Made by a program: the position numbers and the translations under genes. The notes under the pieces are model-generated. The model was not told the DNA's origin, ran no database searches, and saw nothing but the letters and a program-made list of their open reading frames with translations. This document shows, one piece after another, positions 36,003 through 48,235 of a stretch of 64,000 nucleotides of DNA (the first letter of the stretch is position 1; every line of letters begins with the position of its first letter). Source of the DNA: a bacterium (lineage in GTDB: Bacteria > Patescibacteriota > Minisyncoccia > Portnoybacterales > GWB1-42-6); the NCBI GenBank assembly GCA_043800535.1, contig JAZDMV010000008.1, positions 9,251 to 73,250 of the forward strand. The letters are read 5' to 3'.

Positions 36003-36301
36003 ATTTTATATTTCAAGCAAAAAGCGGCTCCTTTGAGAGAGTCGCTTTTTGCTTGGTCCCACGGCCTAGACGAATCCGGGCTTGGGACTATCCGTTTATA
36101 CGTATAATCAGATAGTAAGTAAAAACGTTTATCCTCACACCTTCAGAATGCCTTGCAAGGTGTGGGGATTTATTTAAGCAGTTTCCCGCCTAAATCTCTC
36201 TCTAAACGCGGTTTAATTTAAATTTGAAAAAACACTAACTTTTCTTTATACCTCTATTATAGCATATCTGGAACTACCTGTCAATGGTTGACTATTTTCT
36301 G

Positions 36302-36393
36302 TAATTCCCGTGCCGCGCCCTTCCGAAGCTTTGAGCAAAGGAGGGAAAACGGGAATCCAGAATCTGGATTCCGGGTCAAGCCCGGAATGACAC
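36302..36393. repeat. Copy D of the modular AATGACA element (long form)
   Basis: AATTCCCGTG...GAAGCTTTGAGCAAAGGAGGGAAAACGGGAATCCAGAATCTGGATTCCGGGTCAAGCCCGGAATGACACA. Confidence 0.8.
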
Positions 36394-36950
36394 AATATTT
36401 TTTGCCCTTCCTCCCCAAATTTCATGAGCCATTCATAAAATCTCGGGTGGAAGGGGCAGGCGTATTTCTAATTTTTACCTGCCCCTTTTTTTTGAAATCT
36501 CTAAGGTACTCATTCGGGGCACAGCCGCCTCTGCCTCACGTGTGTTGGTTTTTTATTTTCGTCTGGACCATGCCCGTGATACAAACCAGACGACCTCATC
36601 CTTGCCATTTAACGGACGTTTTTCGATACGTCCGGGGTGAATGGTCTCAGCTTGCGCTCGAACTTTTGTTCATCGTGAGCTTGCATGCTGGCCAGACACC
36701 TGGATGGATTTCGCTTTTACGCGGAAGGATTTCCCATGCCTTTGGGTTATCCGCAACCTCCTAAGAGGAAAATGTGGCGGGTCTTGCCTAGGGACCCATT
36801 CGTCAATCTTTATCTAATGACTCTCACCTCCCTCTCCTGAAGCGGCGCGAGCTTTGTCGGCCGCTGGCTGAAATTTCCCGATTTCCTACTATATCATAAA
36901 TAAAAAACCTTGTCAAGAGTTGGCAAGGGTTTAGTCGTAACGATGAATTT

Positions 36951-39366: not shown

Positions 39367-39876
39367 CTATTTCTTCTTCTGGCTGAAGCTTCCTTTTATT
39401 AACGTCGGGTCAAGCTTTGATAAAACTGCTGGCGCGATTTTAAGAGAGTTCTGATAATCCCCCGCGCTGACTATAATTTTTGATGGTTTGATAAGCGCGT
39501 TGTCAATGAATGTCGGCAGTTTGTAGAAAATTCCGAAAGCGGGCGTGGCGCCGACTTTGATGCCTTTGAGCGATTTTTTCATCCACTGTTCTTTGGCAAA
39601 ATCAATTTTTTTGAATGGTGCGAGCTTTGTTTTCTGCCTTTGTTTGTTTACGAGCGCGAGCAATTTTTTCTTGTCAAGATTTTTGCTGGCCGGGATCAAG
39701 GATAGCATATGATATTTGACGTCCAGGCTGACGACCACGCTTTTGGCCACTTCCTGCGGTTTTAATTTAAGCGTAGCTGCTTTATCAAGGGCGGTGTAAA
39801 CAACTCGGTGTTTTACGATTTCGTATTTGACTTTGTTTTTATCTAAAAAGTTAAGAAGGGACTTTGGGATAGGCAT
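39367..39876 (-). CDS. YbaK/ProX-type aminoacyl-tRNA deacylase domain protein
   Basis: 169 aa; N-terminal LNFLDKNKVKYEIVKH and YbaK fold pattern. Confidence 0.7.
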   Translation of the reverse strand: MPIPKSLLNFLDKNKVKYEIVKHRVVYTALDKAATLKLKPQEVAKSVVVSLDVKYHMLSLIPASKNLDKKKLLALVNKQRQKTKLAPFKKIDFAKEQWMKKSLKGIKVGATPAFGIFYKLPTFIDNALIKPSKIIVSAGDYQNSLKIAPAVLSKLDPTLIKGSFSQKKK

Positions 39877-39883
39877 GGTGGCA

Positions 39884-39994
39884 TGTCATTCCGTGCTTGC
39901 TTGCCCGTCCGTAGCTTTAGCGAAGGAGGGACACGGAATCCAGCCAGCCTGTTGCGGCAGATGGATCCCGCATCAAGTGCGGGATGACAGGAAT
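39884..39994. repeat. Copy E of the modular AATGACA element (longest form, about 110 nt)
   Basis: TGTCATTCCGTG-CTTGCTTGCCCGTCCGTAGCTTTAGCGAAGGAGGGA-CACGGAATCCAG...GGATCCCGCAtcaagTGCGGGATGACAGGAAT; begins 8 nt upstream of the ybaK-like start codon. Confidence 0.85.
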
Positions 39995-40198
39995 ATAAAT
40001 TTAAATTTCTCTTCCTGTCAGTTTATCACAACTTCTGAAATTTTCAAATAAATTCCGTTGATCCGCGCTAAAAGGCGGAGCATCCAAAAAAGTATCTTTT
40101 TATACTTTCCATTTAACCTCTGCCTGAAAGTAAAGGATCTCTGGATGTAACGGGATAAAAAAATGGCCTGCTTGATAAGCAGGCCACATGGCAATTTT

Positions 40199-40567
40199 TT
40201 ATCCGGCGCGAAAGTATGGCAGCGCCTGGAAAAGGAACAATTTAATCTCGTCAAGTAATACGGGAAATCCATCGTCAGAGATGAGAACTTTTTGCAGCCG
40301 CAGCGTGGCGATGGGAAGGATGAATAGGCAATTCCAGAATTTGCTGCAGACAAGGGAATAATGGACAGTTTGGACAAAACAGGAAAGGTCTTCGAGTTCC
40401 TGGGCGTATTGCTCTGCAATATCAATTTGTGCCTGGAATTTGGCCCGTGCCTGAATGCCGCTGTGGTCAAGGGGTTCGTGTTCCTGCTTCTTTTGTGTGG
40501 CCGTCGCAAAGATTAAAAGTTCTTCTCGCCGTTTTTCCAGAATATCACACAGCGAGAAGACACTCAT
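40199..40567 (-). CDS. Hypothetical protein (about 123 aa)
   Basis: ORF overlaps the upstream 387-aa gene; internal ATG at 40567 chosen to limit the overlap to about 22 nt. Q/E/A/L-rich helical sequence with no motif. Confidence 0.3.
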   Translation of the reverse strand: MSVFSLCDILEKRREELLIFATATQKKQEHEPLDHSGIQARAKFQAQIDIAEQYAQELEDLSCFVQTVHYSLVCSKFWNCLFILPIATLRLQKVLISDDGFPVLLDEIKLFLFQALPYFRAG

Positions 40568-41708
40568 CTGCGCTTTCGCTGACATCATTTGGCATAACAT
40601 ATTCGGCCTCCTTTCCTGCGCTTGGCATAACTTCAAAGACAATGTGGTCTTTTTGGCGGCCAGATCTATCACGGCTTTTTTTGTCGGACAATCCAGTGGT
40701 TATTCGAAGCTGAACATCCCCTATTCTTTTTTTTGGCTTTGGCAGGACAAGGTTTGCGAGTTTTCTTTCTTTTGTCGGTTCTCCGTTCCAGCCAAAGAGG
40801 TCAACGTAGTTTTTCCACAAAGGATTATGGTTGCCTTTTGGCAGATATCTGTTGAGCATTTCTATCTTGAGATATTTTGGAAGCTTTCTAAATGAGCGCG
40901 TTCGTCCGATGAAGCCGACCCGATTGAGGTTTTGGAAACTGCGGGAAAAGCTTTTTTTGTAGATATCCAGATACAGGTCAGAAAACCTCATGAGCCCCCT
41001 AAGATGGTTTTGCAGGCGGTCGTTGAGTTCCAGTTCCGCGAAAAAGACATCGTTTAATAAGTTCCGGTCAACTAACGAAACAACGAACCGTGCTCCATTA
41101 AGAGCGGGTTTGTATGACACTGAACTGAAAACGGTCTTGTGTTTTCGCGAATAATAGTTTCTTTCCGTGGGAACGAGAAAAGGATTTTCTGAATATGCGC
41201 CTTTCTTTCTTAACTTTACAGCGATGTCGGTAAAAATTTGGAGCATGTCAAAGATTATTGGAGAGGCCACCATATATTGCTGGTCGGTCATGGAAAACCA
41301 TTCTCTTCTTCTCTCGATCGCACGGTGTTTGATCCCGTTATTCTTTAACGCCGCACCGAAATTATTGACAAGATATTCGGAAATCAGAATAAACCATTCA
41401 CGTCTGTATCTTTTGCGGTTTTCGTTTTTTATCGGCCTTTCTCTCCTGATGGATTTGGGCATAAGGGCCCGATGATAAGGACGGGATTCGCCAAGGCCAA
41501 TCTCACAAAGGACAGCTTCTTCGTATTTTTTTGATTGGAATTCGCCGGGGCCAATGACGGCCAGCACTCCGAGCCCCGGCGTCGGGTTTACGGTAATCCC
41601 AGGATGCGAAATATCAATGACCACTGCCGCAAATTGTTTTACTCGCTCTACGTCTTTTGCGATCAAGATAGGAATTTCAGCCGGGCTTATCCCGTTCATT
41701 TTTATCAC
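40545..41708 (-). CDS. Hypothetical protein, 387 aa, no recognisable family
   Basis: RBS GAGGTGATAAAA before ATG. Own promoter region with a 13-bp IR (TCCCTCACATGGG...CCCATGTGAGGGA) upstream. No motif matches from sequence inspection. Confidence 0.6.
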   Translation of the reverse strand: MIKMNGISPAEIPILIAKDVERVKQFAAVVIDISHPGITVNPTPGLGVLAVIGPGEFQSKKYEEAVLCEIGLGESRPYHRALMPKSIRRERPIKNENRKRYRREWFILISEYLVNNFGAALKNNGIKHRAIERRREWFSMTDQQYMVASPIIFDMLQIFTDIAVKLRKKGAYSENPFLVPTERNYYSRKHKTVFSSVSYKPALNGARFVVSLVDRNLLNDVFFAELELNDRLQNHLRGLMRFSDLYLDIYKKSFSRSFQNLNRVGFIGRTRSFRKLPKYLKIEMLNRYLPKGNHNPLWKNYVDLFGWNGEPTKERKLANLVLPKPKKRIGDVQLRITTGLSDKKSRDRSGRQKDHIVFEVMPSAGKEAEYVMPNDVSESADECLLAV

Positions 41709-41896
41709 CTCGCTTTCTTTATTAAGTTTTTAAGTTTCTGATTGAATTCTATCAAGCACTGGCGCGTTGGACAAACAGCGCTTGTGGATAAATCCCTCAC
41801 ATGGGGTGCATATCTTTTTTTGGTGTCTGTCCCATGTGAGGGAGAAAAAGCGGGTTTGCTGGGAATAAATTCCTACACCAGGTTTTTTGGTGTGGG

Positions 41897-41935
41897 AATA
41901 AAAAACCCTGACGCTTGAGGCGTCAGGGCGGATGA
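41897..41935 (-). terminator. Rho-independent terminator after the AsnB-like gene
   Basis: CCCTGACGC-ctcaa-GCGTCAGGG followed by TTTTTTATTCC on the minus strand. Confidence 0.7.
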
Positions 41936-41946
41936 CTGAAAAGGTG

Positions 41947-42765
41947 CTAGAACTTATCTAATCCCGAGCAAAATCCGACTTTTTTCCGCTCAATAATTTC
42001 GAGCAGAAGGTATTTTCGCGCGATATTGCGCAAAGGGATTTTGCTTTCTTCGTGCGAGGTGCGTTCGTGGACCGGAATGCCGGCTATATATTTGACAGCC
42101 GGCAGCTGGAGGTAAGGCAAAAGGAGCTTGATTTTGAAATGGTCTGCATCCCTTTGCAACGGCTTGAGGTGTTTAGGGACGAGTTGTCTCCAAAAATCCC
42201 TAAAAGCTTCCTCCTGGTTCAATCCGACATTTCCGCGGTGCGGCCAGTAGCCGCCTAATAGCTCGTCAATGCCATCGTGGGCAATCACTGCGTTGGCGCC
42301 GTTTAAGGCCATTGTGCGATATACCGTGAATACGGCGATATCACCGCCTGTTGGCGTCTGGACTTTAGGAAAAGCGTTTTGAAACGCTTTTTTCCAGTAG
42401 ATTTCTTCGTTGTTTTTGTCATATCCTGTCGGCACTATTTCCACATGGTTGGCTCCAAAAATTTTGGAAATAGTGCGAGCGTACATGATATCTGGATGCT
42501 CTTTATTCCCCCCTATTGTATAGGTGGAAATGACTGCCTTTGGAAAAAGCTGGCGTATGATAGCAAGGCAGAACGAAGAGTCAAGGCCGCCAGACAATGT
42601 CATAAATATCCAGCCGTCCTTATTGCAGGACATACACCATTCGGCACATGTTTTGATGGCCGCTTTAAGGATTTTTTCAAGCTCGGGTTCATTCCAATTT
42701 GGATTCGCCGCCGAAATGACTTCTTGCGTTACAGCTGTTTGCCAATCGTTTAATATGTTCGGCAT
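41947..42765 (-). CDS. Stand-alone asparagine-synthetase-type ATP pyrophosphatase (PP-loop) domain protein
   Basis: SGGLDSS PP-loop, TYTIGG and DGIDELLGGYWPHRG matching the AsnB C-terminal domain. RBS AGGAGGTG before ATG at 42765; no glutaminase domain. Confidence 0.75.
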   Translation of the reverse strand: MPNILNDWQTAVTQEVISAANPNWNEPELEKILKAAIKTCAEWCMSCNKDGWIFMTLSGGLDSSFCLAIIRQLFPKAVISTYTIGGNKEHPDIMYARTISKIFGANHVEIVPTGYDKNNEEIYWKKAFQNAFPKVQTPTGGDIAVFTVYRTMALNGANAVIAHDGIDELLGGYWPHRGNVGLNQEEAFRDFWRQLVPKHLKPLQRDADHFKIKLLLPYLQLPAVKYIAGIPVHERTSHEESKIPLRNIARKYLLLEIIERKKVGFCSGLDKF

Positions 42766-42877
42766 ATTTACACCTCCTAATTTTGATTTTTTGTTGGTTT
42801 TTAGGTACAAAAATAATCACCGGAGTGATTATTTATATTAGCATAAAGAATGCTCTGTGTCAAGTTGTTAATTCGCA

Positions 42878-43174
42878 TTATTCAAAAACCGCCTCGGTTT
42901 TACCAAAAGTTCTTTTTTTGACAATTTTAAAAGCCCGGTTTTGGTGGTCGTAAAGCTTGCCAGAAAAAGTTCTATCCAGGACATGAGATAATTTGTTACC
43001 AGAAAGCAGATGCTTTATTTGATATCTTTCCCCCTTCATGTTTTTTTGCGAAAACAAAAAACAGTGATGCAGCTCATGCCGCGCGTTTTGTCGCGATTTT
43101 AAATGATGCATGTGGTGGACAAAATAAAGACGCGTCTGCTCTTTTTCGCTTAATAAATTTTTGTGGTTTTTCAT
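42878..43174 (-). CDS. Small His-rich protein, possible degenerate HNH-like fold
   Basis: 98 aa; VHHMHHL...QNAR..HELHHC. 24 nt downstream of ychF on the same strand. Confidence 0.4.
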   Translation of the reverse strand: MKNHKNLLSEKEQTRLYFVHHMHHLKSRQNARHELHHCFLFSQKNMKGERYQIKHLLSGNKLSHVLDRTFSGKLYDHQNRAFKIVKKRTFGKTEAVFE

Positions 43175-43198: not shown

Positions 43199-44272
43199 TT
43201 AAACGCCGACGTGGAAATAAATTACGTCGCCGTCCTGCACAATATATTCTTTTCCTTCAAGGCGCATACGCCCGGATTCTTTCAAATGTGGCCAGCCGCC
43301 GAGCGTCACAAAATCTTGCCAGTTAACCACGTCGGCTTTGATAAAACCTTTAATAAAATCAGTGTGGATGACACCGGCCGCCTGAGGGGCCTTGGCGCCG
43401 CGCCGGACTGTCCAGGCGCGGGTTTCGGGCTCGCCGCTGGTCAGAAAAGTTATTAAGTCCAGCAGTTTATAGCTTTTGGCAATTAGTTTATCCAGGCCGG
43501 TTTCTTCTATGTTGAGCGACTTTAGATATTCTCTGGCTTCGTTCTCTGGCAGGTCAGCTAATTCCGCTTCTAGCTTTGCGCAAATTTCAATTTGCTCGGT
43601 GCCCTCCTCAATTTTTGGCGTCTCGGCCGGTTTGTTTTCATCGCTGTTTATAACATAGAGGACCGGCTTCATGGTCAACAAGTTGAGGTCAGCTACAAGT
43701 TTCTTTTCGTCTTGGTCCAGACCAGCGTCTCTGGCAGGTTTACCCTGTTCTAAAACTGCATAGATCTTTTCGCAGACAGCCAGTTGTTTTGGCGCCAGTT
43801 TGTCCGAGGGGTTTTTGGCGGCGCTCCGCAGGTTTTCCAGCCGCTTCTGCACTGTGGCCAGGTCCGCCAAAGCCAGTTCCAGGCCTATTATTTGGGTATC
43901 GGATACTGGGTCAATTTTGCTTTGAGTATTGATGATTTTGGTATCGGAGAAAGCCCGGACAACCTCAACTATGGCATCCACCTCGCGGATGTGGGAAAGG
44001 AATTTATTGCCAAGACCCTCCCCCTTTGAGGCGCCGGCCACTAGGCCGGCAATGTCCACAAATTCTATTACCGTCGGGATGATCTTTTTTGACCTTGAAA
44101 CCTCGGCGAGTTTAGCCAGGCGGCCGTCAGGGACCTCAACAACGCCCACGTTGGGGTCTATGGTGCAGAAAGGATAATTTGCTACGTTGGCCTGCTTTGA
44201 ACGTGTTAAGGCGTTAAACAGCGTTGACTTTCCGACATTTGGCAGGCCGACGATGCCGACTGATAAAGGCAT
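43199..44272 (-). CDS. ychF: Ribosome-binding ATPase YchF (Obg-family GTPase)
   Basis: [19 protein letters not shown]1 motif, [13 protein letters not shown] motif and C-terminal TGS domain. Confidence 0.9.
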
Positions 44273-44397: not shown

Positions 44398-44829
44398 TTA
44401 TGCACCGGCAATCGTCTGAACCGGAGCAATCAGTTCTTTTAGCGTTAGCGTTTGAGTTGTCGCGTCTGACACTTTTTTGTTGGCTTTCAAAAGAGCTGAT
44501 TTCAGCTCGGACAGAAAAATGTAGAAACGCGGATTTGTGGGGTTATCAGCGAACTCCCTGATGAATGCAGTGGCAAATTCCTCTCCGGACTCCTGATATA
44601 CCCGGTCGAGCACCGCACCGCAACATTCCTCCACAACTTGTCTGCCAAGAAATCGACTGACTACATAGGTTTCGTCAGTTCGTCTGGGATGGGTCCGGCC
44701 GCAGACTTCGCAGAGTATGGGGCCGTCGGTACCCCAGCTTTCGTTATTCCATTGTGTTCTGAAGCATACCCCAAGCTTGCTTGGGCCGTAAGGTTTTGGG
44801 TGTTTCCGTTTTTTCTTGTTCATTGTCAT
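44398..44829 (-). CDS. Hypothetical Cys-containing small protein (143 aa)
   Basis: RBS AAGGGGGTT before ATG. Lys-rich N-terminus; CxxC (CEVC) and CC pairs. Confidence 0.55.
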   Translation of the reverse strand: MTMNKKKRKHPKPYGPSKLGVCFRTQWNNESWGTDGPILCEVCGRTHPRRTDETYVVSRFLGRQVVEECCGAVLDRVYQESGEEFATAFIREFADNPTNPRFYIFLSELKSALLKANKKVSDATTQTLTLKELIAPVQTIAGA

Positions 44830-46484: not shown

Positions 46485-46555
46485 TTCACGAATGTGGACC
46501 TAGGCAGAATCGAACTGCCATCTCCTCATTGCAAATGAGGTGTTCTACCACTAAA
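46485..46555 (-). tRNA. tRNA-Ala (anticodon UGC)
   Basis: Folded by hand: acceptor GGGCCUA/UAGGUCC with G3:U70, D-arm GUUU-AGUGGUA-GAAC, anticodon loop UUUGCAA, T-arm GGCAG-UUCGAUU-CUGCC, discriminator A; CCA not encoded. Confidence 0.85.
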
Positions 46556-46690
46556 CTATAGGCCCGTATAAATTTAACGGGGCAGGCTGAGCTATGGGTC
46601 CACCCAAATTATCAATCTCATTGTCTCGTTTCGCGAGATGTCCCGTAGGGAAACAAATGTGGTGCTCTACCGACTGAGCTATCGGCCCTT
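46556..46690 (-). pseudogene. tRNA-like 5' fragments (acceptor + D-arm only), no complete cloverleaf
   Basis: GGGCCGATAGCTCAGTCGGTAGAGCACC (perfect acceptor/D-arm) and GGACCCATAGCTCAGCCTG lack matching anticodon, T-arm and 3' acceptor. Confidence 0.3.
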
Positions 46691-46875
46691 AATTTGTTCA
46701 TAATCTAACACAAATACGCATTTTTTTCAAATTAAGTGTTGCGGGGATTGTTTTATTGGGGTATAATAAAAAGAATGTTTTTAAAAAATTATTTACTCCC
46801 TTCTTTGAAAAAGGAGGGGTGGGGTGGATTTAAATCTCCCTTACCCCCTCTTTACGAAAGAGGGGAATTTTTCAG

Positions 46876-48015
46876 ATGAAAAAAAATTACGCAAAGCTAG
46901 GGATTGAGGTGCATAAAAAGATGCACGGAAAAATTTCCGTTGTTTCCAAAAAGCCGGTAAAGACGATGGACGACTTAAGCATTCTTTATACGCCCGGCGT
47001 TGGCGCGGCTTCTTCATATCTTGCGGCACACAAAAACGAAATTCGCGCAATGACGATAAAAAACAATACGGTTGCCGTTGTTTCTGACGGTTCGGCGGTT
47101 CTGGGGCTGGGAAATCTTGGGCCGGAGGGCGCAATTCCCGTTATGGAAGGCAAATGCGTTCTATTCAAGGAGTTTGGCGGGGTTGACGCGTTCCCAATTG
47201 TTTTAGATACACAGAACCCCGACGAAATTGTGGAAACAGTCAAAAACATTGCGCCGATCTTTGGCGGAATTAACCTGGAAGATATTTCGGCGCCGCGATG
47301 TTTTGAAATTGAAGAACGGCTTGAAAAGCTTTTGGATATTCCTCTGATGCACGACGACCAACATGGCACGGCAATAGTGGTGCTGGCTGGGTTGATAAAC
47401 GCTTTAAAGGTTACCGGCAAAAAAGTGTCGCAAAGCAAATTTGTGATTGTCGGCGCGGGCGCGGCCGGAAATGCGACAGCTAAACTTTTGCACGGGATCG
47501 GCGCCGAAGACATTATTGTTTGTGACAGTAAAGGAATAATCGACCGGCGCAGAAAGGATCTAGACCCGTATAAAAAAGCACTGGCAAAAATTACGAATAA
47601 AGATAATGTGTATGGCGGCGTGGCAGTGGCGGCTGAAGGCGCGGACGCGATAATCGGCGTTTCAAAACCGGGTTCTATAACGGCCGAGCACATAAAGTTA
47701 ATGGCAAAAAAACCGATTGTTTTCGCCCTGGCCAATCCGATTCCTGAAATTATGCCGGATGTTGCAAAAAAGGCGGGTGCTTTTATCATTGCCACAGGCC
47801 GTTCCGATTTTCCTAATCAAATCAACAATGTTTTGGGGTTTCCTGGAATTTTCCGCGGGGCGCTTGACCACAATGTCAAAAAAATAACGCCTGGAATAAA
47901 ATTAAAAGCGGCAAAAGCATTAGCCGCCTTGGTAAAGAAACCGAGCCGGACAAATATTGTGCCAAACGTCTTTGACAAACGCGTAGCAAAAGCAGTCGCT
48001 AACGCGGTAAGGTAA
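46876..48015 (+). CDS. NAD(P)-dependent malic enzyme (short form, MaeB-like)
   Basis: LSILYTPGVG..., GAGAAG Rossmann motif and malic enzyme domains; 379 aa. Confidence 0.9.
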   Translation: MKKNYAKLGIEVHKKMHGKISVVSKKPVKTMDDLSILYTPGVGAASSYLAAHKNEIRAMTIKNNTVAVVSDGSAVLGLGNLGPEGAIPVMEGKCVLFKEFGGVDAFPIVLDTQNPDEIVETVKNIAPIFGGINLEDISAPRCFEIEERLEKLLDIPLMHDDQHGTAIVVLAGLINALKVTGKKVSQSKFVIVGAGAAGNATAKLLHGIGAEDIIVCDSKGIIDRRRKDLDPYKKALAKITNKDNVYGGVAVAAEGADAIIGVSKPGSITAEHIKLMAKKPIVFALANPIPEIMPDVAKKAGAFIIATGRSDFPNQINNVLGFPGIFRGALDHNVKKITPGIKLKAAKALAALVKKPSRTNIVPNVFDKRVAKAVANAVR

Positions 48016-48044
48016 CGGGCTGTAGGCGATCGTGAAATGCTATA

Positions 48045-48086
48045 GTGCATACACTCCCGTGCTCCCGAGCACGGGAGTGTATGCAC
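48045..48086. repeat. 42-nt perfect palindrome, copy 3
   Basis: GTGCATACACTCCCGTGCTC-CC-GAGCACGGGAGTGTATGCAC, 30 nt after the malic enzyme stop. Confidence 0.9.
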
Positions 48087-48098
48087 GAATAGAAACAT

Positions 48099-48125
48099 AA
48101 AGACCCCGCACAATGCGGGGTCTTT
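48099..48125. terminator. Hairpin terminator between malic enzyme and tRNA-Ile
   Basis: AAAGACCCCGCA-caa-TGCGGGGTCTTT. Confidence 0.5.
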
Positions 48126-48158
48126 ATGGCTTCGCCATTCCGAAGCCTTGGCGAAGGA

Positions 48159-48235
48159 TGGTGGGCGACCCAGGAATCGAACCTGGCACCTCGTCATTAT
48201 CAGTGACGCGCTCTAACCAACTGAGCTAGTCGCCC
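48159..48235 (-). tRNA. tRNA-Ile (anticodon GAU), CCA encoded
   Basis: GGGCGAC-UA-GCUC-AGUUGGUU-AGAGC-G-CGUCA-CUGAUAA-UGACG-AGGUG-CCAGG-UUCGAUU-CCUGG-GUCGCCC-A-CCA. Confidence 0.9.

Follow-up and report, generated by a model that had tools for sequence, protein, structure and literature searches.

A small histidine-rich protein and a truncated AsnB-like enzyme form an undescribed gene pair in Patescibacteria and in uncultivated phages

RESULTS

Organization of the Locus

The window is a 64,000-nt stretch of a Patescibacteria contig. In the region downstream of ychF, all features were called on the minus strand. A sequence-only reading had placed a small His-rich gene, an AsnB-like gene, a 387-aa orphan, and an overlapping ORF there; all described features were present on this strand, and their coordinates were confirmed. 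The gene ychF (43199–44272; Pfam YchF-GTPase_C and MMR_HSR1) is followed, 24 nt after its stop codon, by the gene for the small His-rich protein (98 aa, 42878–43174), an order that recurs in the related loci L008 and L026. The AsnB-like ORF spans 41947–42810. Translation probably begins at ATG 42765, which is preceded by a GGAGG; the resulting gene (41947–42765) encodes 272 aa, the same sequence as that of deposited protein P0016. A promoter-like site (TTGACA-17-TAATAT with a TG extension, 42835–42863), a match to the consensus only, lies between the two genes. The two-gene module is closed by an intrinsic terminator (41905–41929) with a 10-bp stem containing 7 GC pairs and the T-tract TTTTTTAT, and a homologous hairpin of the same shape occupies the same place behind the AsnB-like gene of the syntenic locus L008.

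The 250-nt intergenic region 41700–41950 is strongly structured (folding z = −7.1) and contains a perfect 13-bp inverted repeat (41793–41805/41831–41843, 25-nt spacer) upstream of the next gene. The 387-aa ORF proposed for that gene (40545–41708) was found, but translation probably starts at the ATG at 41699 behind a GAGGTG, yielding 384 aa (40545–41699) in agreement with the deposited protein P0001. The overlapping ORF (40199–40672) was likewise found; with the likely start at ATG 40600 behind a GGAGG it encodes 133 aa (40199–40600) and not the ∼123 aa first estimated. A second terminator (40163–40187; 11-bp stem followed by TTTTTTTAT) and a YbaK-like tRNA_edit gene (39367–39876, Pfam PF04073) complete the region. 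In a generic promoter and terminator scan such sites were no more common than in shuffled sequence, so that single sites are weak evidence. An Rfam scan of 36–46 kb gave only a chance miRNA-like match on a hairpin. When all five proteins were searched against Pfam, NCBIfam, PHROGs, and PADLOC, Asn_synthase was the only match; in PADLOC-DB, LmuB reached an E value of 0.035 on the PP-loop of the enzyme only, and the other four proteins gave nothing. The genes flanking the module are housekeeping genes. The suggested association with a defense island thus found neither a PADLOC signal nor fitting neighbors.

The 384-aa Protein Is Encoded by a Lineage-specific Insertion

The 384-aa protein, termed protein X here, was confirmed as an orphan. 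Its family comprises 15 Patescibacteria members with pI values of 9.8–10.3, and Pfam scans of all 15 returned noise only. Foldseek searches of the AF2 model (pLDDT 76) against PDB and BFVD found nothing at E ≤ 0.001, and PDB sequence searches with the profile of protein X and with its neighbor Y gave nothing useful. The syntenic loci L008, L059, L026, L012, and L018 lack the gene and have the YbaK-like gene after the AsnB-like gene with no copy of it in between, and the DNA diverges right after the shared terminator of the AsnB-like gene. Elsewhere, homologs of protein X adjoin RecO plus a ligase, a primase, or an RNase J-like gene, and none lies beside an AsnB-like gene. The gene for protein X is therefore an insertion, present in this lineage only, between the terminator of the module and a pre-existing small ORF. 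Terminal repeats, as a sign of a transposon, were not found around it. Protein X is probably nucleic acid-associated, and its gene is very likely unrelated to the two genes upstream.

Two further elements of the proposed cassette did not hold up in this comparison. The 13-bp inverted repeat, read before as operator-like, is not conserved upstream of the homologs, and the 133-aa ORF is not conserved as a partner of protein X. A non-conserved C-terminal tail of protein X extends 56 nt into this ORF. Over its N-terminal 59 residues the 133-aa ORF aligned with a 131-aa ORF of L008 (pairwise BLASTP, E = 0.033), and it is a weak, fast-evolving positional ortholog of the latter. Family searches with the 133-aa ORF in Pfam, NCBIfam, PHROGs, and PADLOC were without match.

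The Small Protein Has a Conserved His/Cys Pattern

More than 324 homologs of the small protein were collected, with lengths of 86–137 aa and no Pfam domain in any of them. The domain occurs in three types: type A, to which the protein of the window belongs, is encoded upstream of the enzyme, type B downstream, and the third is a phage type. Eight His and one Cys are universally conserved in the domain. The residues kept in all three types are His-20, His-21, His-23, His-36, His-37, Cys-38, His-55, and His-64, and His-24 and His-33 are additional conserved histidines in Patescibacteria. The universally conserved residues are of the metal ligand type only. No invariant acidic residue or Lys was found across the three subtypes, so that the domain offers no obvious single conserved site for modification. 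Within the subtypes the protein is conserved over its full length, with no hypervariable core.

The AF2 model of the small protein (pLDDT 88.7) consists of an N-terminal helix and a nine-strand β meander. The conserved His and Cys residues alternate on adjacent predicted strands, and their pattern would fit two tetrahedral metal sites; the protein presumably binds zinc. A Foldseek search of the model against PDB returned nothing at E ≤ 0.001, Pfam yielded nothing above noise for any of the 115 family members scanned, and the phage-type domain had no match in PHROGs. The domain is confidently predicted to adopt a new fold. The sole PDB sequence match of the small-protein profile was the TAZ1 zinc finger of CBP/p300 (E about 0.01, not significant). 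The spacing of His and Cys is similar in the two, but TAZ is all-helical whereas the small-protein model is all-β, and no homology is claimed.

Two known metal-site families were considered for the small protein and rejected. The label HNH-like had been attached to it; however, the protein of the window had no match to HNH, its Asn-30 is variable in the family, and the all-β model has no helix after the His hairpin, as a His-Me finger (ββα-metal) would require. The only trace of HNH was a sub-threshold match in one of the 115 family members (E = 0.0076). The HELHH segment of the window protein resembles the HExxH motif of zincins, but type B has Lys, Ser, or Asn in place of its Glu, the phage type has the Glu at a shifted position, and the segment is predicted as a β strand where a helix is required. 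DUF5700 and DUF2268 appeared as sub-threshold matches only, in 11 of the 115 members.

The Enzyme Is a Truncated AsnB-type PP-loop Protein

The 272-aa enzyme matched Pfam Asn_synthase (PF00733) with 71.3 bits against a cut-off of 21 and contains the motifs SGGLDSS, TYTIGG, and DGIDELLGGYWPHRG, which bears out the earlier assignment: the enzyme is a PP-loop protein of the AsnB type, stands alone, and has no glutaminase domain. Its homologs in Patescibacteria number more than 159, with lengths of about 265 aa. The enzyme profile aligned to residues 225–474 of human ASNS and 229–456 of Escherichia coli AsnB, so that, relative to AsnB, the glutaminase domain at the N terminus and some 80–100 residues at the C terminus are missing; the protein ends in a conserved GFC(S/D)(A/G)L. 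The PP-loop SGGLDSS (residues 58–64) is invariant in alignment A4. Invariant Asp-164, Asp-167, Glu-168, and Lys-242 aligned with Glu-364, Asp-367, Glu-368, and Lys-466 of human ASNS in the profile alignment. In the human enzyme this acidic cluster and Lys-466 have roles in the synthetase site, where the cluster holds the protonated amine beside the activated carboxylate (PMC6748925). The cluster as preserved also fits a free amino acid as substrate, for example aspartate, an observation that counts against the idea of an amide formed on a partner domain.

Other conserved synthetase-site residues are not kept. Human Asp-400 and Arg-403 aligned with His-199 and Pro-202 of the enzyme, and the ASNS segment TTVR aligned with a non-conserved xxGD; mutagenesis of E. 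coli AsnB has reportedly implicated this segment in aspartate binding. The scores for specific families were low: 58.5 versus 267.1 bits for the asparagine synthetase equivalog TIGR01536, 40.3 versus 499 bits for PRK09431, and 13 bits against a cut-off of 300 for the lasso/macrolactam cyclase NF033561. Matches to QueC (TIGR00364, 20.6 versus 150.3 bits) and PF06508 (16.2 versus 22 bits) covered the PP-loop region only. Roles of the tRNA lysidine, NAD synthetase, or LarE type were also considered, and no family model supported them. In Patescibacteria a nearly invariant His-163, absent from the phage enzymes described below, directly precedes the catalytic DGIDE loop. Its occurrence largely coincides with the pair His-24/His-33 of the small protein, although imperfectly, as a fourth His is kept in some phage domains.

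The Two Genes Are Linked across Patescibacteria

Of 21 informative Patescibacteria loci, 20 have a member of the small-protein family beside the AsnB-like gene and in the same orientation. This count is composed of the window, 17 of 18 other informative loci from a scan for the motif HH.H[HY]x3-16 H..HHC on the same strand directly beside the AsnB-like gene, and L058 and L059, which were reached from the small-protein side; three additional loci are truncated at the ends of their contigs and lie outside the motif-scan count. Control loci contained no match to the motif in 346 kb. In the exception, L018, one partner is present without the other adjoining. By manual comparison, ∼30 contigs were apparently common to the two independent lists of homologs of the small protein and the enzyme. 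Both gene order (small gene upstream in type A, downstream in type B) and genomic context differ between loci, and the linkage is therefore not mere synteny. The pair is kept in hundreds of Patescibacteria, among them Parcubacteria-type groups, Shapirobacteria, and others.

The surroundings of the module were compared as well. The YbaK-like gene lies directly behind the AsnB-like gene in L012, L018, L026, and L059; in L008 the 131-aa ORF stands between them, and in L027 the gap is larger. In seven Patescibacteria loci, some of them distant (36–46% identity), the module is part of a block with genes for the YbaK-like protein, D-Ala-D-Ala carboxypeptidase, and MraY, to which L059 adds MurD. Taken for itself, this block could indicate a substrate linked to the cell wall or to tRNA, a counterpoint to a tag domain as the substrate. 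Other loci have the module beside SerRS, RF-1, or RsgA, and in L058 the two genes overlap and follow SerRS. A Peptidase_C39-like gene occurs just upstream of the module in L010, and the Patescibacteria loci compared share no conserved leader peptidase, RRE, or exporter near the module. No fusion of the small domain with the enzyme was found among the sequences listed with their lengths, roughly 190 for the small domain and 120 for the enzyme.

It is highly probable that the small protein and the AsnB-like enzyme form a functional unit. The comparison of neighborhoods around the AsnB-like gene, proposed together with the sequence-only reading, thus yielded a strongly conserved neighbor, and the pairing noticed there as unfamiliar is not a described system. 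Literature searches turned up no relevant account of the pair, either for Patescibacteria or for phage head modules; this is an undescribed gene pair.

Uncultivated Phages Carry the Domain on Virion Proteins

A whole-library HMM search recovered the small domain in uncultivated phages, where it is fused after the Peptidase_S78 prohead protease, at the C terminus of portal proteins, and between portal and MuF. Among the alignments used to search viral contigs, A6 of the phage type alone gave matches, and the Patescibacteria-type profiles A1, A4, and A5 gave none. An AsnB-like gene of the same subfamily lies directly 3′ of the phage small domain in seven of nine loci (seven of the eight from IMG/VR), the exceptions being L065 and L070 with one partner but not the other adjoining. 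The phage enzymes matched the Patescibacteria profile with E values of 1e-31 to 1e-52, compared with only 1e-22 for human ASNS, a value that comes from a different search. They share the motifs HPD, DGIDE..GGYW.H, and GFCDAL and the same truncation with the Patescibacteria enzymes. The copy in L061 carries a GATase_7 glutaminase domain, which points to amide formation. GenBank phage genomes contained no match to the phage-type domain or to the AsnB-like proteins of the phages.

DISCUSSION

There is roughly an even chance that the locus as a whole holds two independent things, an amidoligase-type pair and a separately inserted gene for protein X. The pair is best read as an ATP-dependent amidoligase of two components that adenylates a carboxylate and acts on or with a zinc-binding domain. 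The enzyme retains the full kit for carboxylate adenylation with ATP (PP-loop, catalytic Lys, and acidic cluster) and would activate a carboxylate as the acyl-adenylate before transferring it to an amine. Ammonia may be the acceptor, as the glutaminase domain kept in one phage copy implies, or else an amine of a protein or ligand. We infer that the two proteins interact physically. The folded zinc domain would be the obligatory partner of the enzyme, most likely as the modified protein or as a carrier of the substrate. Such a carrier- or tag-like domain would stand alone in Patescibacteria and be fused to virion proteins in phages, with the enzyme remaining a separate gene.

Known AsnB-type enzymes provide a partial precedent. 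The present enzyme resembles the synthetase domain of AsnB and human ASNS in its PP-loop, its Asp164-Gly-Ile-Asp167-Glu168 loop, and its Lys, but differs in the lost termini and synthetase-site residues described above and in its obligate small partner gene. With carbapenam synthetase CarA (E = 2.6e-10) and β-lactam synthetase (4e-4) it shares the common synthetase fold. CarA, β-lactam synthetase, and the lasso cyclases are AsnB-type enzymes in which an amine of the substrate replaces ammonia; however, these intramolecular amide-forming enzymes keep a degenerate N-terminal domain, are 500–620 aa long, and have no zinc protein as partner. In QueC-like Cap9 (type IV CBASS “deazaguanylation”), LarE, and Dph6, a small PP-loop enzyme adenylates a carboxylate that is then joined to a protein-linked amine or thiol. 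The likeness to these enzymes lies in the outline of the mechanism, and family scans, by which alone they were compared, place them in other PP-loop subfamilies (QueC, 20.6 against a 150-bit cut-off); their partner proteins are unrelated. The phage arrangement recalls the polymorphic effector fusions at the C termini of MuF and portal proteins, in which a variable domain is appended and a dedicated gene follows directly downstream. Unlike in those systems, the downstream gene here encodes a conserved enzyme and not an immunity protein, and the appended domain has no toxin signature.

That the small protein is a substrate or carrier rather than an adaptor has somewhat less than an even chance. 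It is possible, if rather doubtful, that the pair represents a new protein modification or ligation system, in which the AsnB-type enzyme makes an amide on a dedicated, zinc-stabilized tag domain. Phages would then place the domain on portal, scaffold, and MuF proteins so that the modified domain comes to lie inside the capsid, and Patescibacteria would have retained an ancient stand-alone system.

Alternatively, the small zinc protein may be a subunit that is not itself a substrate, namely an adaptor, a specificity factor, or a co-catalytic metal site. In this role it would make up for the N- and C-terminal parts that are missing relative to AsnB and steer the enzyme toward a third substrate, for example a carboxylate of a peptidoglycan precursor, a tRNA or nucleic acid modification, or a small molecule. 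This is consistent with the restriction of universal conservation to metal ligand-type residues, with the largely, though imperfectly, shared occurrence of His-24/His-33 and His-163 of the enzyme, and with the gene contexts, both the seven cell-wall blocks (with MurD in L059) and the loci beside SerRS, RF-1, and RsgA. However, Patescibacteria genomes are rich in translation and cell-wall genes, which makes the evidence from context weak. Obligate subunits are usually fused at least now and then, and no such fusion was seen; the fusions to portal, protease-scaffold, and MuF proteins fit a tag or substrate domain more readily than an enzyme subunit. We regard a subunit role as a somewhat unlikely alternative.

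It is improbable that the enzyme is an ammonia-dependent asparagine synthetase or a close amidating variant, with the small protein as a regulator or an unrelated conserved neighbor. Pfam and NCBIfam do place the enzyme nearest to asparagine synthase, and the sources annotate it likewise; E. coli AsnB can use ammonia, and asparagine synthase is a common viral auxiliary gene. Against this stand the score of 58 bits versus the 267-bit equivalog cut-off, the replacement of Asp-400/Arg-403 by His-199/Pro-202 and of TTVR by a non-conserved xxGD, and the missing C-terminal part. Nor would one expect the gene of a metabolic enzyme to be strictly paired with a domain that phages fuse to portal and prohead protease proteins.

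A RiPP-like system, in which the small protein would be a precursor peptide that the enzyme cyclizes or amidates into a secreted natural product, is very improbable. AsnB homologs do act in RiPP pathways, forming macrolactams (lasso peptide cyclase) or C-terminal amides (thiopeptides), and here too a small ORF adjoins the enzyme, with the Peptidase_C39-like gene of L010 as a further hint. However, the small protein is confidently predicted as a folded domain of 90–100 aa with no hypervariable core, no conserved leader peptidase, RRE, or exporter was found nearby, the cyclase model scored 13 bits against a cut-off of 300, and fusion inside virion proteins is at odds with a secreted peptide. The single four-gene cassette first proposed (HNH-like nuclease, PP-loop enzyme, 387-aa effector, and partner) for defense or nucleic acid modification has in its favor the adjacency of the genes on one strand, the occurrence of PP-loop enzymes in some defense and DNA modification systems, and the one sub-threshold HNH match, but is extremely improbable, being already contradicted by the neighborhood comparison, in which the 384-aa gene is missing from syntenic relatives and never linked to AsnB-like genes elsewhere, and at variance with the separate terminators that split the region, the housekeeping genes on both flanks, the small-protein model without a ββα-metal fold, and PADLOC results that did not rise above noise.

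The genomes of Patescibacteria are very small, and yet the pair is retained across many of their lineages; it therefore likely has an important role, hidden so far under the label “asparagine synthase.” Its presence in phage head morphogenesis clusters hints at an unrecognized enzymatic step in virion assembly or host takeover. The unusual signature of eight His and one Cys is a simple handle for finding the system elsewhere.

Genes and elements of the region

All genes of the region lie on the minus strand, and the genes and elements that a sequence-only reading had described at 40199-43174 were found there as noted. To judge from the nearest relatives, the organism belongs to the Patescibacteria (CPR). 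The ychF gene (43199-44272) is followed after 24 nt by a small ORF for a 98-aa His-rich protein (42878-43174) and then by the gene for a 272-aa AsnB-like enzyme, identical to a deposited protein of a metagenome-assembled genome. A promoter-like sequence, TTGACA-17-TAATAT (42863..42835), is located between the two, and GGAGG precedes the ATG start of the enzyme gene at 42765. After a strong terminator (41929..41905), an intergenic region of 250 nt with a perfect 13-bp inverted repeat leads to a 384-aa ORF (40545-41699), whose last 56 nt overlap a 133-aa ORF (40199-40600). The latter has a GGAGG ribosome-binding site and ends at a second terminator, beyond which a YbaK-like tRNA_edit gene, a D-Ala-D-Ala carboxypeptidase gene and MraY are encoded.

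Further features were recorded around these genes. The intergenic stretch 41700-41950 gave -81.6 kcal/mol (z = -7.1 versus shuffled sequences), with several hairpins besides the 13-bp repeat, and had no Rfam match. A palindromic, GC-rich element, TGTCATCCCGCACTTGATGCGGGATCC, occupies 39963-39989, in the gap that separates the 133-aa ORF from the YbaK-like gene; this 27-mer has a single exact or near-exact copy in the window. A spurious-looking ORF at ~36.3 kb (36246-36425) encodes a similar 'HSGLDPESR'-type peptide, typical of repeat elements. Upstream of ychF, a 143-aa ORF (44398-44829) with several Cys residues (CEVCGRTH...ECCG) had no family match in the four libraries scanned. At 46494-48235, a malic-enzyme gene is placed on the opposite strand between tRNA-Ala(TGC) and tRNA-Ile(GAT). 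The usual home of these two tRNAs is in rRNA spacers.

The AsnB-like enzyme and the small His-rich protein

The enzyme scored 71 bits against Pfam Asn_synthase and far under the cut-offs of the NCBIfam asparagine-synthase equivalogs, and QueC and lasso-cyclase models gave noise-level scores. A profile built from 35 family members aligned to residues 225-474 of human ASNS, 229-456 of E. coli AsnB and 240-448 of CarA. The synthetase domain is therefore present without the glutaminase domain and without the last 80-100 residues; the Pfam score and this alignment bear out the description as a stand-alone AsnB-type enzyme lacking a glutaminase domain. Its adenylation site is intact. Whereas human ASNS has the conserved residues D400 and R403, the enzyme family has an invariant H199 and, at the second position, P202, and its C-terminal end is conserved as GFC(S/D)(A/G)L. 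The family comprises >159 members of ~265 aa with 40-78% identity, and its named sources include Wolfe-, Nealson-, Moran-, Vogel-, Jorgensen- and Falkowbacteria.

For the small protein, library scans of the window protein and of family members yielded no significant family match. A profile search recovered >324 homologues of 86-137 aa, all devoid of Pfam domains, which form two subtypes, type A of ~98 aa (including the window copy) and type B of ~88 aa with extra Cys residues. Residues H20, H21, H23, H33, H36, H37, C38, H55 and H64 were invariant in 120 sequences, and H24 was present in 119. In the AlphaFold model (115 sequences, pLDDT 88.7), one helix is followed by nine strands, and the HHxHH and HxxHHC motifs are on neighboring strands. 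A Foldseek search of the model against the PDB gave no match, and the sole match in a PDB sequence search was a marginal one to a TAZ1 zinc finger. The protein had been called HNH-like, a classification that is not supported, since the HNH membership test failed. A reading as HExxH peptidase failed its membership test as well.

Linkage of the two genes in Patescibacteria

In the first four loci compared, the two genes were neighbors, each time in another context. A regular-expression motif scan was then applied to the window and 21 Patescibacteria loci, three of them cut by contig ends. The small-protein motif directly adjoined the enzyme gene on the same strand in the window and in 17 of the 18 other loci, while the rest of the window and 346 kb of unrelated loci had no copy of it. 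The small gene is upstream of the enzyme gene in type A loci and downstream in type B loci. Two further loci were reached from the side of the small protein, and both had the enzyme gene next door. In one of these two, a Shapirobacteria locus, the genes for SerRS, the small protein and the enzyme overlap or abut. The only recurrent extra neighbors, the YbaK-like gene, the carboxypeptidase gene and MraY, belong to one set of seven loci. The proposed pairing of the His-rich protein with the AsnB-like enzyme is thus borne out by adjacency across loci, the small gene being the conserved neighbor of the enzyme gene. Three loci (L021, L018 and L024) carry the Parcubacteria-type module and synteny despite 'Micavibrio sp.' or 'Candidatus Saccharibacteria' labels, which may be unreliable.

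Phage and fusion versions

When 1.8 billion cluster representatives were searched exhaustively with an HMM of the small protein, 73 proteins were recovered, fusions among them. Five proteins carry the domain after a Peptidase_S78 prohead protease; it also forms the C-terminus of an SPP1-type portal and lies between portal and MuF domains in one 816-aa protein. It is the small domain, never the enzyme, that is fused to virion proteins. Type B domains occurred after a SET domain combined with the catalytic core of a eukaryotic-type topoisomerase IB and next to MYND-like Cys/His zinc fingers, the latter judged by eye from the sequences (P0303, P0323, P0325 and P0299 for both cases); these fusions suggest that the family extends to giant viruses or to organisms associated with eukaryotes. 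In phage-type domains H24 is mostly lost and Glu stands at the position aligned by eye with H33, so that eight His and one Cys are common to all types. Domains at a protein end (alignment A6; e.g. P0275, P0284, P0285, P0288 and P0294) often have a conserved tail, K-W-S-x-(Q/A)-(D/E), which versions embedded between protease and scaffold lack.

With the phage-type alignment, eight IMG/VR loci were found, whose GC content ranges between 25% and 68%, and in seven of them the AsnB-like gene is directly 3' of the domain. The pair is strictly linked across bacteria and phages. The phage enzymes matched the Patescibacteria enzyme profile with E values of 1e-31 to 1e-52 and have its specific motifs and truncation in common. 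Terminase, portal with domain, AsnB-like enzyme and MuF head-morphogenesis protein follow one another in L060 and L064; in L062 a head-maturation protease comes after the pair, and the pair is flanked by HNH endonuclease genes in L063 and by DNA-metabolism genes in L066. No enzyme gene adjoins the domain in the degraded phage locus L065 or in L070, where an HNH gene comes after the protease fusion, at the end of the contig. A glutaminase-bearing relative exists: the L061 enzyme still has this domain and branched closest to the outgroup in a rough neighbor-joining tree without support values, in which the Patescibacteria enzymes formed one clade beyond the phage branches.

Two phage loci had additional features. 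In L067 (4888-7424), PHROG family 3313 is split: the N-terminal half is joined to the His-rich domain, and the gene that follows the AsnB-like one encodes the C-terminal half. The arrangement resembles a single gene interrupted by insertion of the two-gene module. The domain-bearing portal of L060 (2948-6088) also has a LAGLIDADG_3 domain (residues 612-692), which may be an intein or homing-endonuclease insertion.

The 384-aa protein and the 133-aa ORF

The 384-aa protein, earlier described as a 387-aa protein with no recognizable motif, is indeed an orphan. Its homologues number only 15, at 33-45% identity and none with a Pfam match, and its model (pLDDT 76, pTM 0.75) had no match in the PDB or BFVD. 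Invariant motifs of the family, whose pI is 9.8-10.3, include GPGE, SRPYH, R.KWF...QY and DHIVFE; in the window copy, ~35 aa of disordered basic sequence are inserted and the C-terminal tail is unique. The genes of its relatives are flanked by RecO and DNA ligase in the vicinity of dnaA, or have a large primase gene upstream or an RNase J-like gene downstream; in the loci compared none is near an AsnB-like gene. In two unrelated contexts, homologues are preceded by a protein of 377-403 aa (L001:6648-7859, L005:6498-7709, L068:3626-4759 and L069:2600-3733) that is 47% identical between contexts, absent from the window, and without match in Pfam or PDB sequence searches. Its C-terminal Cys cluster and PIPVDFH..R motif are, we presume, reminiscent of HhH-GPD Fe-S DNA glycosylases. 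A nucleic-acid-related role of the 384-aa protein, from charge and neighbors, is only a guess.

In five syntenic loci (L008, L059, L026, L012 and L018), the 384-aa gene is missing from the interval between the AsnB-like and YbaK-like genes. The window and L008 have the terminator in common and diverge directly after it, and the N-terminal part of the 133-aa ORF weakly resembles a 131-aa ORF in the corresponding position of L008 (E 0.033). On this evidence, the 384-aa gene is taken to have been inserted in this lineage such that its stop codon fell within a small gene already present. The idea of one cassette including this gene was not sustained, given the syntenic loci without it and its relatives away from AsnB-like genes. 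Nor is the 133-aa ORF, proposed at ~123 aa as its partner, related to the genes after 384-aa homologues elsewhere.

Proposed mechanism of the pair and its meaning

The enzyme would form an acyl-adenylate and then an amide, and the small domain would bind about two zinc ions. Our tentative preference is that the small domain is a modified or carrier protein, although the subtypes taken together have no invariant Lys or acidic residue, which speaks against it as substrate. That it serves instead as an adaptor subunit is considered somewhat less likely. A plain asparagine synthetase is quite improbable, and a RiPP or defence cassette is less likely still.

The finding itself is real. In interest, the unrelated orphan insertion that makes up its second half ranks below the estimate of the sequence-only reading. 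The first half ranks above that estimate, as a widespread, undescribed enzyme-partner module that phages also carry.
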